A stretch of 63,786 nucleotides of DNA, counting the filler, from Atractiella rhizophila (Eukaryota): the NCBI GenBank assembly GCA_021432655.1. It is 3 parts of 3 records of this genome, joined end to end, with 100 filler letters (N's around TTAATTAATTAA, not from the genome) between each part and the next. Parts side by side here need not be neighbours in the genome. Positions count along the whole stretch, not along the records: positions 1 to 21,432 come from MU271825.1; 2 more parts are not named here. The stretch is one strand, 5' to 3'. The first letter of the stretch is position 1. The number at the start of each line of letters is the position of its first letter. The notes beneath the pieces were generated by a model that had not been told where the DNA came from, searched no databases, and saw only the letters and a list, made by a program, of their open reading frames with translations. Positions 17,048-18,830 of this stretch are shown here, piece by piece. Both the position numbers and the translations under genes were made by a program.

Positions 17048-18830
17048 ATGCACATCCAACTCCTCCTCCCCCTCGCTCTCCTCCCACTCCAAATCTTCTC
17101 CCTCCCCGTCCCCCAACCGCAGGAACAAGGACTGAATCCGCTCCCTAACGACAGCGACTTCGCCACCAAATCCGTCAACGGCGTCATCACTGCCTTTGGG
17201 TCGTCCGGGAAGAAGGCGAAGAGGGGCAGGAGGACGAAGGTTCGAAGGGTGGCGATTGTTGATTCGGACGTTGTGTTGGAAGAGAGACAGGAGAATCCGA
17301 TTCCTAATGACTCTGACTTTCCTACAAAAGTAGTGAATGGAGAAATCGTGCCTTGTTCGTGTTTCCAATGCTTACCACTTCGTCGCACACTGACTGGCAG
17401 TGGATGAATAGTCAAGAAGGAAAAGAGGCAGGAGAATCCGATCCCAAATGATTCCGACTTTCCTACAAAAGTAGTGAATGGAGAAATCGTACCTTGTTGG
17501 TCTTTCTACGTCTCTGCCTCTCTCTCGCTAACTGACTGTTGGATGATGGATAGTCAAGAAGGAAAAGAGACAGGAGAACCCGATCCCTAATGATTCGGAC
17601 TTTCCTACAAAAGTAGTGAACGGAGAGATTGTGCCTTGTTCGTCTTTGGACTCGTGTTCTTCTCAAAACCTAACCCCTTCATAAACAGTCAAGAAGGAGA
17701 AGAGGCAGGAGAACCCGATCCCTAATGATTCGGACTTTCCTACGAAAGTAGTGAATGGAGAGATCGTGCCTTGTTCGTCGTCTCAAAAGTCTGTCTTGCT
17801 CCAGTACTGACTGGTTGATACACAGTCATCAAAGAGAAGAGGCAGGAGAACCCCATTCCGAACGACTCTGACTTCCCCACTAAAGTCGTGAACGGCGAAA
17901 TTGTGCCTTGTTCGTCCTTTGATTCGTATTCTTCCTCAAAGCCTGATTGATTGTCAAACAGTCAAGAAGGAAAAGAGGCAGGAGAACCCGATCCCTAATG
18001 ATTCGGACTTTCCTACGAAAGTAGTGAACGGAGAGATTGTGCCTTGTTCGTCCTTTGATTCGTATCTTCCTCAAAGCCCGCCTGATTCTTAAACAGTCAA
18101 GAAGGAGAAGAGGCAGGAGAACCCGATCCCTAACGATTCGGACTTTCCTACCAAAGTAGTGAACGGAGAGATCGTGCCTTGTTCGTCGTCTCAAAAGTCT
18201 GTCTTGCTCCAGTACTGACTGGTTGATACACAGTCATCAAAGAGAAGAGGCAGGAGAACCCCATTCCTAACGACTCTGACTTCCCCACTAAAGTCGTGAA
18301 CGGCGAAATTGTGCCTTGTTCGTCCTTTGATTCGTATTCTTCCTCAAAGCCTGATTGATTGTCAAACAGTCAAGAAGGAAAAGAGGCAGGAGAACCCGAT
18401 CCCTAATGATTCGGACTTCGCTACCAAAGTCGTCAACGGCGAGATTGTACCCTGTGAGTCGTCCTCCTTTCGCTCTCCTCCAACCATTCTCAATGATGCA
18501 AAATAGTCTCCAAGCGTCAAGTTCCCATCGACGAAGCCGAGCGTGCGTCGTCTCTTCCCACCATGCCCCTTCTCCTGGACTTATGAATCACCTAATGGAG
18601 CAGTGAACGCCATCCTGGCTGAACGCACGGAAGCGGAGAGACGGTCGCTCGCTGGGGTTGGAGGAGTGAAGGCTCCCCTGAGCAGTGGGGAGAGGAAGAT
18701 GAGGAGGAGGAGCTTGCAGAAGGAAGAGAAAGTGAAGAGGGAGGAGAATCCGATCCCGAACGACAGTGACTTCGCCACTAAGGTCGTCAATGGTGAGATC
18801 GTGCCCTTCAAGTTCACCAGGGAGAAGTGA
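17048..18830 (+). CDS. Secreted Kex2-processed repeat protein (KEP), 413 aa, 11 copies of a ~23-aa peptide
   Basis: Signal peptide MHIQLLLPLALLPLQIFS. Exons 17048-17354, eight 84-nt exons (starting 17412, 17554, 17689, 17826, 17962, 18097, 18234, 18370), 18507-18542 and 18604-18830 sum to 1242 nt in frame. Repeat unit is (K/I)KEKR-QENPIPNDSDF(P/A)TKVVNGEIVPF. Confidence 0.93.
17283..18453 (+). repeat. Tandem array of ~136-bp exon+intron units with a 408-bp higher-order period
   Basis: Introns 17773-17825 and 18181-18233 are identical, as are 17910-17961 and 18318-18369. Confidence 0.92.

Follow-up and report, generated by a model that had tools for sequence, protein, structure and literature searches.

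A spliced eleven-core peptide precursor gene of Atractiella rhizophila, a probable divergent member of a basidiomycete KEP family

A short locus in the genome of Atractiella rhizophila raises the question whether it encodes a secreted precursor from which many copies of one small peptide are cut, and whether such a peptide belongs to any family already described. The earlier note on this DNA, a stretch of 63,786 nucleotides hereafter called the window (a scaffold gap lies elsewhere in it), had proposed a Kex2-processed repeat precursor releasing 11 copies of an uncharacterised peptide. The locus is a real one, namely a transcribed and spliced fungal gene for a secretion signal and eleven peptide copies. 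We regard it with good confidence as a nuclear gene of A. rhizophila, or of a very close relative, that codes for a Kex2-processed repeat protein (KEP) and belongs, as a divergent member, to the conserved basidiomycete family typified by KEP 497993 of Coprinopsis cinerea.

Gene structure, splicing and constraint on the cores

Scripted splicing of ten GT..AG introns, each in phase 1 and 51-61 nt long, reproduced the single 413-aa frame (1242 nt) described before, with a hydrophobic leader followed by 11 related cores of 22-23 aa (Table 1). The mean Kyte-Doolittle hydropathy of residues 3-18 is +1.83, as against -0.94 for the rest of the protein, and the leaders of the relatives discussed below are comparable to this predicted one. 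The protein contains no Cys, Tyr or Trp, and neither a Ser/Thr-rich nor a GPI-like tail was seen in it. Eight of the cores are identical (QENPIPNDSDFPTKVVNGEIVPF); the remaining three comprise one Q core of the FATK variant, a terminal FATK core which starts with E, and a divergent N-terminal core. The linkers had been correctly described as KKEKR or IKEKR; six and two cases were counted, respectively, to which one SKR is to be added, and EER stands before the first Q core, for which the earlier note gave ER. From the second Q core on, each core occupies an 84-nt exon of its own together with the preceding 5-residue linker. Tandem Repeats Finder delineated the array at 17278-18455 (period 135, 8.6 copies) and revealed in it a 408-nt super-period with 86% matches.

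Every repeat is interrupted by an intron, which is why the ORF track misses the gene, and the public gene model stops in an intron as well. The 102 aa of exon 1 are identical to the start of KAH8914008.1, a 199-aa hypothetical protein of A. rhizophila, but this model runs into an intron, holds four Q cores only and differs from the window in the order of its units. A database search for a full-length form returned no longer homologous protein model, which is weak evidence.

Table 1. Features of the precursor gene, in window coordinates; X1, X2, X8 and X19 are public sequencing runs
Feature	Position	Strand	Details and evidence
Whole precursor coding region	17048..18830	+	11 exons, 10 introns, 413 aa; ATG at 17048, stop at 18828-18830; spliced frame and transcript contigs
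Predicted ER signal peptide	17048..17101	+	aa 1-18, MHIQLLLPLALLPLQIFS; hydropathy only
Divergent N-terminal core	17132..17197	+	aa 29-50, LNPLPNDSDFATKSVNGVITAF, then GSSGKKAKR; spliced translation
Basic pro-spacer	17198..17287	+	KR, RR, RR sites; ends VVLEER before first Q core
Nine-Q-core array	17288..18453	+	core = 66 nt + split Phe codon; starts 17288, 17429, 17571, 17706, 17843, 17979, 18114, 18251, 18387
Non-repeat spacer	18507..18740	+	coding parts 18507-18542 and 18604-18740; starts SKR then QVPIDEAE, contains RR and RRR sites, ends KVKR
Terminal core	18741..18809	+	aa 385-407, EENPIPNDSDFATKVVNGEIVPF, then KFTREK and stop
Intron 1	17355-17411	+	57 nt, GTTCGT..TAG; exact joint 17354>17412, X19 (2 contigs) and X2 (side 84)
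Intron 2	17496-17553	+	58 nt; exact joint 17495>17554, X19 and X2 (side 67)
Intron 3	17638-17688	+	51 nt; near-exact joint 17637>17691, 2 letters between (X19)
Intron 4	17773-17825	+	53 nt, sequence identical to intron 7; exact joint 17772>17826, X19 and X2
Intron 5	17910-17961	+	52 nt, sequence identical to intron 8; predicted from GT..AG and frame, no joint of its own listed
Intron 6	18046-18096	+	51 nt; near-exact joint 18043>18097, 2 letters between (X2, side 45)
Intron 7	18181-18233	+	53 nt; predicted from GT..AG and frame
Intron 8	18318-18369	+	52 nt; exact joint 18317>18370, X19 (2 contigs) and X8 (side 77)
Intron 9	18454-18506	+	53 nt, GTGAGT..TAG; exact joint 18453>18507, all four runs
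Intron 10	18543-18603	+	61 nt, GTGCGT..CAG; exact joint 18542>18604, all four runs

Evidence of splicing was taken from contigs of four public runs (X1, X2, X8, X19; min_likeness 90) covering positions 16900-18900; X8 is registered as a root metatranscriptome, and the other three carry no RNA label on record. These contigs contain exact spliced joints for six of the ten introns and near-exact ones for two more, in agreement with the junctions proposed before, and the exact joint of intron 10 places its acceptor at 18603 and not at 18600. Three long-range GT..AG joints, all of them in frame, were found too: 17354>17689 (X19, X1, X8), which uses the acceptor of intron 3, 17772>18234 (X1, side 34; X8, side 59), which uses that of intron 7, and 17909>18370 (X2, side 84), which uses the donor of intron 5. 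Since the runs are represented by contigs only, several joints have sides of fewer than 30 letters and the repeat units cross-map among contigs, neither the copy number nor the long-range joints can be interpreted from these data. The depth of X19 is very high, but expression was not gauged from it, given that depths of contigs were summed and that the runs had been chosen by this very gene. Neither the low depth over the introns nor the lack of an exact joint for introns 5 and 7 was weighed for or against the model.

The claim that the copies differ mostly at synonymous positions was borne out by the alignment of the nine Q cores, in which 19 of 66 DNA columns are variable and 18 of these, all at third positions, are synonymous, the single non-synonymous one changing P to A. 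Mean pairwise identity amounts to 0.86 among the unit exons versus 0.69 among the introns. Across the four runs 36 coding variants were counted (28 synonymous, 8 non-synonymous), with six of the non-synonymous ones located in the non-repeat spacer, while the leader and a core hold one each; all three variants of the terminal core are synonymous. These observations support purifying selection on the cores. The array would have grown as exon-plus-intron units of 135-142 nt were duplicated in tandem, the 408-nt triple unit being presumably the latest expansion, with selection holding the peptide constant as codons and introns drifted.

Relatives and family assignment

An exhaustive phmmer search with exon 1 against 1.84e9 representatives gave three matches only, i.e. 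the gene's own truncated public model (P0003) and two unrelated repeat proteins (P0004, P0005). The orphan status suggested by this search proved wrong, as the search with P0003 found a family. Against 5.8e9 database sequences, P0003 matched P0006 with an E-value of 3.4e-11 (9e-18 in pairwise BLASTP), a value which is helped by repetition and refers to an alignment limited to the C-terminal half of the unit. The subsequent profile search yielded 25 proteins at E<=0.01, two query proteins included, all with 2-7 KR-separated cores of the IPAE..K..NG.IVPY type. An N-terminal leader is present in the matches with the exception of the two queries, of P0028, which is a fragment, and of P0013, P0016, P0024, P0025 and P0027, where it is absent or not at residue 1. 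The repeat pattern of the family, Q..IPAEIAVKS.NG.IVPY-(V)KR, occurs in signal-peptide proteins, including KAF8229365.1 of Tricholoma matsutake and CCA71832.1 of Serendipita indica.

When an HMM built from 79 unique units of the relatives only was run against the 2498 six-frame ORFs of the window, the ten best matches were the ten core-carrying ORFs of the gene, with E-values between 3.7e-5 and 0.099 and a value of 1 for the ORF ranked next; the scores per unit are low (∼10-11 bits) and refer to the C-terminal half only. The top-scoring domain was the divergent N-terminal core (ORF 16916-17404), which aligns with the ATKS..NGVIT.Y cores of relatives. In addition, five relatives (P0018, P0020-P0023) have, as judged by eye, VEER directly before their first core, similar to the Atractiella protein.

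When P0003 and relatives were scanned against Pfam, sub-threshold, repeat-driven chance matches and no curated family were obtained, and the sequence search of the PDB found nothing (best E 0.27). All scores in the ESM Atlas were below 0.9 and served as leads only; a cluster carrying MF_alpha (0.81) is a weak look-alike. A scan of metagenome contigs gave 186 pattern matches and a single locus confirmed by tblastn, which was rejected as a chance KEKRQENP match in a bacterial gene without repeats. Neither NPIPNDSDF nor motifs of the IPAEIAVK type were found by literature text search, Atractiella and NPIPNDSDF are absent from the searched supplement text of PMC7329392 and PMC6339444, and the searched text of PMC10282164 contained no KEP content.

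The family is represented in C. cinerea by KEP 497993 (Vogt et al. 2022, PMC9769878, available text), from which LC-MS/MS revealed pyro-QIPAELPTKSINGNIEPY(K) and pyro-QVPVDEPA, neither of them present in the kep knockout. The comparison was made with the peptides printed in that paper and not with the precursor sequence. Both proteins share a signal peptide (predicted in our case), KR-separated tandem cores starting with Q, and the core pattern I-P-(acidic stretch)-(P/A)-T/V-K-x-x-N-G-x-I-x-P-aromatic (PTKSINGNIEPY versus PTKVVNGEIVPF). A second element follows KR in each, QVPVDEPA in C. cinerea and QVPIDEAE in the Atractiella spacer, and tailoring genes appear to be involved in neither case (PMC9769878, available text). 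On the other hand, the Atractiella core is longer (23 versus 18 residues): its Q is extended by EN, NDSDF stands where the other has AEL, and it ends with Phe, whereas the C. cinerea peptide ends with Tyr; cores of the relatives mostly end VPY, yet those of P0015 end VPF or IPF. The gene further differs by the linker KKEKR instead of the shorter (V)KR, by 11 copies instead of 2-7, by an intron in every repeat unit, and by its host, which belongs to Pucciniomycotina, while C. cinerea and the homologues are Agaricomycetes. The conserved N-terminal pro-region of most relatives (RDV.VLGVR..P ... K.INR) is absent from the Atractiella protein in the sequence comparison, but since it is missing from P0013, P0016 and P0024-P0027 too, it may not define the family. 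Homology to the wider KEP 497993-type family is supported by the match of P0003, the profile search and the unit HMM, with the reservations that repetition inflates the scores and that the alignments cover the C-terminal half of the unit only.

The same family probably corresponds to KEP type #7 (G-1/P-2) of Umemura 2020. According to the available text of PMC7329392, no other KEP type has so wide a distribution (64 KEPs, 62 strains, 49 genera); it occurs nearly always in Agaricomycotina, usually in a single copy and with DUF3328 nearby in none of the 64 cases. Its genera include Coprinopsis, Pleurotus, Hypsizygus and Panaeolus, those named by Vogt (PMC9769878) for homologues of KEP 497993, and its incidental Pfam matches include DUF2188 and DUF1648, which recur as sub-threshold matches of P0013/P0008 and P0017/P0007. 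CCA71832 and KAF8229365 do not appear in the searched supplement text of PMC7329392.

The peptide is not an orphan: by the searches above, its core has diverged from one that is conserved among basidiomycete KEPs, and peptides of the C. cinerea representative have been detected by LC-MS/MS (PMC9769878, available text). The earlier note had named beforehand what such a match would mean, namely that the novelty is removed and the KEP assignment is kept. What is new is a divergent member from Pucciniomycotina with a longer core, 11 copies and an intron per repeat; the family itself was already known from mushrooms.

Processing of the precursor and competing explanations

KEPs, in the definitions given in the available text of PMC6339444 and PMC7329392, possess an ER signal peptide and repeats separated by dibasic sites. 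The Atractiella protein, with 11 cores, has more than the three near-identical KR/RR/KK-separated repeats required at the least, and the architecture pointed out before is now backed by spliced transcripts and by purifying selection on the cores. The proposed release of 11 copies needs qualifying: all 11 cores are present, but KR sites flank both sides of eight only (seven identical cores and the A variant), the N-terminal, the first Q and the terminal core having one atypical flank each. The protein contains 15 KR/RR sites. None of the eight KEKR linkers departs from KR, and each is followed by Q; nine of the 11 cores start with Q (eight after KR, one after ER), and the terminal one has E after KR. 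All 11 end with F, within VPF in ten cases and TAF in the N-terminal core.

After removal of the ten short phase-1 introns from the pre-mRNA, a step that was observed, the hydrophobic leader would take the 413-aa product into the ER, and in the Golgi Kex2-type proteases would, by homology, cleave every KEKR linker behind its KR. A KKEKR linker would leave a KKE tail, which Kex1 alone would not remove; carboxypeptidases may trim the basic or ragged C-terminus, and the C. cinerea peptide is likewise found both in a form with additional C-terminal residues and in one lacking them (PMC9769878, available text). The N-terminal Gln, exposed in eight cores, would then cyclise to pyroglutamate as it does in the C. 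cinerea peptides, the one relative from which cleavage, trimming and this modification are extrapolated. The main products would be linear peptides of ∼23 residues, pyro-Q-ENPIPNDSDF(P/A)TKVVNGEIVPF, which might carry a tail of K, KK or KKE; the computed neutral monoisotopic masses of the pyroglutamyl 23-mers are 2538.228 (P form) and 2512.212 (A form). Within these peptides, TKVV-NG-EIVP may fold into a small beta-hairpin. In C. cinerea the peptides were still present in all kex knockouts examined, namely each single kex mutant and the kex2a/c double mutant (PMC9769878, available text), so that the assignment of the cleavage to a particular protease is tentative even there.

A similar processing logic, with an ER leader, tandem cores, cleavage by Kex2 behind KR and trimming by Kex1, operates on yeast MFalpha1 and the ascomycete alpha-type pheromone precursors. 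In alpha-factor precursors, however, KR is followed by Ste13 X-Ala/X-Pro dipeptides, whereas Q-E follows it in the Atractiella array; the Atractiella core is longer than the alpha-factor core and unrelated to it, and Pfam returned no MF_alpha or MF_alpha_N match for P0003 or its relatives. Rep1 of Ustilago maydis, the products of which are amyloid-like repellents, and Ece1 of Candida albicans, which gives rise to the toxin candidalysin, are other repeat proteins that host-interacting fungi secrete and process by Kex2. No sequence relation to Rep1 or Ece1 was present in the outputs of the exon 1, P0003 and profile searches, and the Atractiella data show no sign of products of either kind. To our knowledge, the core bears no convincing similarity to plant peptide hormones (CLE, CEP, IDA, PSY, RGF), and this idea was dropped.

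Alternatively, the protein could be secreted and stay largely intact, its hairpins forming wall-associated, adhesive or effector-like beads with the linkers as spacers. AlphaFold2 does predict one isolated, regular hairpin in every unit of P0003, the relatives have shorter linkers, (V)KR in place of KKEKR, and cleavage of the 413-aa protein is deduced rather than observed. Such a role is nevertheless improbable in our estimation, given that the model has no global fold (pTM 0.13), that Cys, a Ser/Thr-rich or GPI-like tail and a Pfam domain are all lacking, and that the invariant KR with Q after each linker is what is found in relatives with MS-detected free peptides (PMC9769878, available text).

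Still further from the evidence is a dikaritin- or ustiloxin-type RiPP precursor, an option listed in the earlier note, with cores cyclised or heavily modified by enzymes encoded elsewhere in the genome. Dikaritins need DUF3328/UstYa and tyrosinase genes nearby, as well as a Tyr-x-Ile core. None of these was seen in the window or in the Atractiella protein: the Pfam scan of 211 window ORFs (24 of at least 120 aa, 75 of the 169 of at least 60 aa around the gene, and 112 of the 160 of at least 85 aa elsewhere), which exons below these length cut-offs could escape, found no DUF3328/UstYa, tyrosinase or other tailoring family, and the protein is devoid of Tyr, Trp and Cys, with 23-aa cores far longer than those of dikaritins. 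A P450 fragment does lie at 48151-48414, ∼30 kb from the gene, and the precursors UstA and PhomA of ustiloxin and phomopsin have the same architecture, a signal peptide followed by many KR-separated cores (PMC7329392, available text). Against this, the C. cinerea relative yields linear peptides with pyroglutamate as the sole modification (PMC9769878, available text), and the probably corresponding type #7 has, as mentioned, no DUF3328 gene nearby; the RiPP option is thus very unlikely. An assembly or annotation artefact, or a decaying repeat with a fortuitous reading frame, might be suspected from the truncated public model with its different unit order, the scaffold gap and the long-range joints, which show that short-read assemblies collapse the repeat, but it has practically no probability left, being already contradicted by spliced joints in four runs and by the excess of synonymous changes among copies (18:1) and strains (28:8), and homologues exist in other fungi.

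Significance for the family and for the root endophyte

The analysis corrects the public gene model from 199 aa with four Q cores to 413 aa with 11 cores. The one-intron-per-repeat structure explains why, in intron-rich fungi, genes of this kind escape KEP surveys that start from ORFs and some that start from gene models.

As regards function, the divergent KEP of A. rhizophila, judging from its relatives, most likely provides a secreted signal or serves the interaction with other organisms, and is less likely to be required for growth; the C. cinerea knockout had no phenotype in axenic culture (PMC9769878, available text). A bolder reading, which we consider rather unlikely, is that an ancient basidiomycete KEP has been rebuilt in a root endophyte as a very strongly expressed 11-core cassette gene, the long-range joints being real isoforms or alleles and the pyroglutamyl hairpin peptide being made in planta, where it would signal to the root of the host or to its microbiota and not within the fungus. 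Under that reading, unequal crossing-over or exon skipping would alter the dose of the peptide and keep the frame, since the 84-nt exons lie between phase-1 introns, and production in planta would follow from the presence of the gene in root metatranscriptomes.

The gene extends a KEP family, probably the most widespread one of basidiomycetes, from Agaricomycotina to Pucciniomycotina, which points to an old origin and to long-term conservation of a secreted peptide. A root endophyte with a raised number of cores and with transcripts in root metatranscriptomes offers a good system for probing the role of this peptide.

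Gene structure, transcription and constraint

Direct reading of the sequence and splicing by script define a frame that opens at the ATG at 17048 on the plus strand and ends with the TGA at 18828-18830, and removal of ten GT..AG introns leaves 1242 nt encoding 413 amino acids. All ten introns are in phase 1, measure 51-61 nt and combine fungal-type donors (GTTCGT, GTTGGT, GTGAGT) with CTGAC/CTAAC-like branch sites; the nine that follow the Q cores (repeat peptides starting with Gln) split the final Phe codon of the core as T|TC. In the deduced protein a hydrophobic leader is followed by a divergent core LNPLPNDSDFATKSVNGVITAF, which a basic spacer separates from nine Q cores, eight of them QENPIPNDSDFPTKVVNGEIVPF and one a FATK form; a spacer of 54 residues then connects these to a terminal core EENPIP...FATK, with KFTREK behind it. 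The first Q core is preceded by EER, and the linkers are KKEKR (six), IKEKR (two) and SKR (one). The layout proposed in the earlier note (ten introns, 413 residues, leader, 11 related cores, linkers) was reproduced exactly on re-splicing, with the single qualification that only 8 of the 11 cores are flanked by KR on both sides (seven identical, one A variant), the other three having one atypical end each.

Features of the precursor gene and of its surroundings
Feature	Position	Strand	Remark
Cyclin gene		-	upstream (Pfam)
MFS transporter gene	13998-16049	+	upstream (Pfam)
Repeat array	17278-18455		period 135, super-period 408 nt (Tandem Repeats Finder)
Intron 1	17355-17411	+	exact joint 17354>17412
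Intron 2	17496-17553	+	exact joint 17495>17554
Intron 3	17638-17688	+	joint off by two inserted letters
Intron 4	17773-17825	+	exact joint 17772>17826
Intron 5	17910-17961	+	no joint of its own
Intron 6	18046-18096	+	joint off by two inserted letters
Intron 7	18181-18233	+	no joint of its own
Intron 8	18318-18369	+	exact joint 18317>18370
Intron 9	18454-18506	+	exact joint 18453>18507, all four runs
Start of spacer after tenth core	18507-18542	+	aa 328-339; SKR, then QVPIDEAE directly behind KR
Intron 10	18543-18603	+	exact joint 18542>18604, all four runs
Ubiquitin/DUSP-domain protein gene		-	downstream (Pfam)
EF-hand mitochondrial carrier gene		-	downstream (Pfam)
RRM protein, P450 fragment, lysine methyltransferase, P4-ATPase			farther in the window (Pfam)
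Tandem repeat	7008-7248		19/63-nt units
N run (scaffold gap)	25548 to about 26530		
Tandem repeat	33792-33906		12-nt unit, 9.6 copies

In a word-index search, 24 public runs from 18 studies contained 22-40% of the 31-mers sampled from 16900-18900; four of the 24 are on record as root metatranscriptomes. Contigs of X8 (RNA on record), X1 and X2 (RNA by guess) and X19 (kind not on record) were aligned to the gene at min_likeness 90. The predicted junctions were borne out by exact GT..AG contig joints for six of the ten introns and near-exact joints for two more, and the joint at 18604 fixes the acceptor of the last intron at 18603 and hence the 413-residue version. In the case of introns 5 and 7, a donor or acceptor is used only in the long-range joints 17909>18370 and 17772>18234. 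These two, together with 17354>17689, are GT..AG and in frame, and lead from the donor of one unit (core plus linker exon) to the acceptor of a later one; they could represent exon skipping, copy-number alleles or short-read repeat collapse, which are indistinguishable from contigs. The precursor gene is transcribed and spliced as predicted.

Variation between the nine Q cores is confined to 19 of 66 columns, 18 of them with third-position synonymous changes and one with Pro to Ala, in agreement with the earlier observation that the copies differ mostly at synonymous positions. The mean pairwise identity of the unit exons is 0.86, versus 0.69 for their introns; a recent triple-unit duplication accounts for the identity of intron 4 with intron 7 and of intron 5 with intron 8. 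Of the 39 differences found in the contigs of the four runs, 36 fall in coding sequence, 28 being synonymous and 8 non-synonymous. Six of the eight non-synonymous variants map to the C-terminal spacer (aa 354-381) and one to the leader (F17L), while the D-to-E change in a core may be due to cross-mapping between repeats. Purifying selection thus acts on the gene at two levels, among its repeat copies and among strains.

Relatives of the core peptide

With the translation of exon 1 (P0001, 102 aa) as query, a search of 1.84e9 representative proteins gave only three matches. All 102 residues are identical in P0003 (KAH8914008.1), a hypothetical protein of Atractiella rhizophila (Pucciniomycotina, class Atractiellomycetes). 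This 199-residue model removes three repeat introns correctly before it enters an intron (...VPCSSFDSYSSSKPD); the public record thus contains the gene in truncated form and without a name. The unit order of the public model differs from that in the window. P0005, a 432-residue database protein with five repeats carrying MNPIPDDE and a RRRRRR block, has a faint NPIP likeness (E 7.5e-4); it is another Kex2-processed repeat protein (KEP)-like precursor, probably unrelated to the Atractiella gene.

Among proteins of similar length, P0003 found one further match, P0006 (E 3.4e-11 for 5.8e9 sequences; pairwise BLASTP 9e-18), in which a leader and a pro-region precede six cores QD(N)(P/V)IPAEIAVKSENGDIVPY with (V)KR in between. 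A profile of both proteins retrieved 25 proteins at E<=0.01, all of the same design. Named relatives are Tricholoma matsutake KAF8229365.1 and Serendipita indica CCA71832.1 (cluster of the database protein P0029), the others coming from JGI, ENA and Logan sources. Their cores, of 18-25 residues and usually with Q after KR, contain I-P-A/E-E, Lys, N/G-G and I/V-V-P-Y.

To prevent circularity, a unit HMM was built exclusively from relatives (79 unique units) and searched against 2498 six-frame window ORFs of at least 15 aa. Its top ten hits were exactly the ten core-carrying ORFs of the gene (E 3.7e-5 to 0.099; next ORF E 1), and no second gene copy was found in the window. Each unit scored about 10-11 bits over HMM positions 9-20, the aligned half of the core being (P/A)TK..NG.IVP-aromatic. 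The N-terminal half, however, reads NPIPNDSDF in Atractiella and IPAEIA in the relatives; the N-terminal core FATKSVNGVITAF is nearest to relatives such as VAVKSDNGVITPY, and the pro-region motif RDV.VLGVR..P, conserved in many relatives, is absent from the Atractiella protein.

P0028, a JGI protein, contains two in-frame units VIPAEIAVKSDNGRIVPYDKRQA with 58 residues between them, including FPQRLPSNQTMVVLSLTTSVK, and looks like a genomic read-through of another family member. Since FPQRLPSNQTMVVLSLTTSVK is the expected +1-frame translation of a third unit, introns between the repeats are suggested for its gene as well; the protein string alone suggests that they lie directly behind KRQ(A), in contrast to the final aromatic codon in Atractiella.

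Family assignment and rejected classes

According to Vogt et al. 2022 (PMC9769878), KEP 497993 of Coprinopsis cinerea is highly conserved and has at least 13 homologues among agaricomycetes. Its expression in Pichia gave pyro-QIPAELPTKSINGNIEPYKV and C-terminally trimmed forms, while in C. cinerea itself pyro-QIPAELPTKSINGNIEPY, a form of it extended by K, and pyro-QVPVDEPA were confirmed against synthetic standards. The core PTKSINGNIEPY of that protein corresponds to Atractiella PTKVVNGEIVPF, and QVPIDEAE, a possible second conserved product, resembles pyro-QVPVDEPA. By sequence, the Atractiella gene belongs to the KEP 497993-type family as a divergent member, and the earlier view of the peptide as unrecognised is not upheld. 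In Umemura 2020 (PMC7329392), type #7 is the KEP type with the widest distribution (64 proteins from 49 genera, DUF3328 nearby in 0/64); its genus list and incidental Pfam hits (DUF2188, DUF1648) suggest that it is the same family. Atractiella and the core motif are absent from the supplement text searched of both KEP catalogues (PMC7329392, PMC6339444). The core motif was not found in the paper texts searched, among which PMC9769878 was the sole match for the C. cinerea peptide.

Pfam scans covered 24 ORFs of at least 120 aa, 75 of 169 ORFs of at least 60 aa at 9-23.4 kb, and 112 of 160 ORFs of at least 85 aa in the rest of the window; the neighbouring genes identified are ordinary ones, and none of the scanned ORFs matched DUF3328/UstYa, a tyrosinase or any further RiPP tailoring family. 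The gene works like an alpha-factor-type/KEP precursor. An alpha-pheromone precursor proper was rejected, as MF_alpha domain and Ste13 dipeptides are lacking, and so was a dikaritin-type RiPP precursor, given the lack of a DUF3328 gene among the scanned ORFs and of Tyr in the protein. The MFS transporter gene lies directly 5' of the precursor on the same strand. The scaffold gap explains six open frames there and the low GC of the 24-28 kb composition bin.

Predicted processing and significance

By homology, the precursor would enter the ER and be cleaved behind the KR of KEKR, the basic and further C-terminal residues would then be removed, and the new N-terminal Gln would cyclise to pyroglutamate. 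Eight peptides with KR at both ends, seven identical and one A variant, would be released; the terminal E-start core, if cyclised, would be chemically identical to the A variant. In C. cinerea, all three peptides disappear in the kep knockout and are still present in each kex knockout tested, both the single kex mutants and the kex2a/c double mutant (PMC9769878). AlphaFold2 on P0003 without alignment gave no global fold (pTM 0.13, mean pLDDT 55.5) and a low-confidence two-strand hairpin at TKVV-NG-EIVP repeated in each unit, which is more in keeping with beads on a string than with a folded repeat domain.

New features are the Pucciniomycotina host lineage, the longer core, the KKEKR linker and the high copy number, along with the exon-plus-intron duplication unit and the corrected gene model. 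The kep knockout had no phenotype in axenic culture (PMC9769878); this silence and the occurrence of the Atractiella gene in root metatranscriptomes point to a possible role of the peptides in interactions with other organisms.
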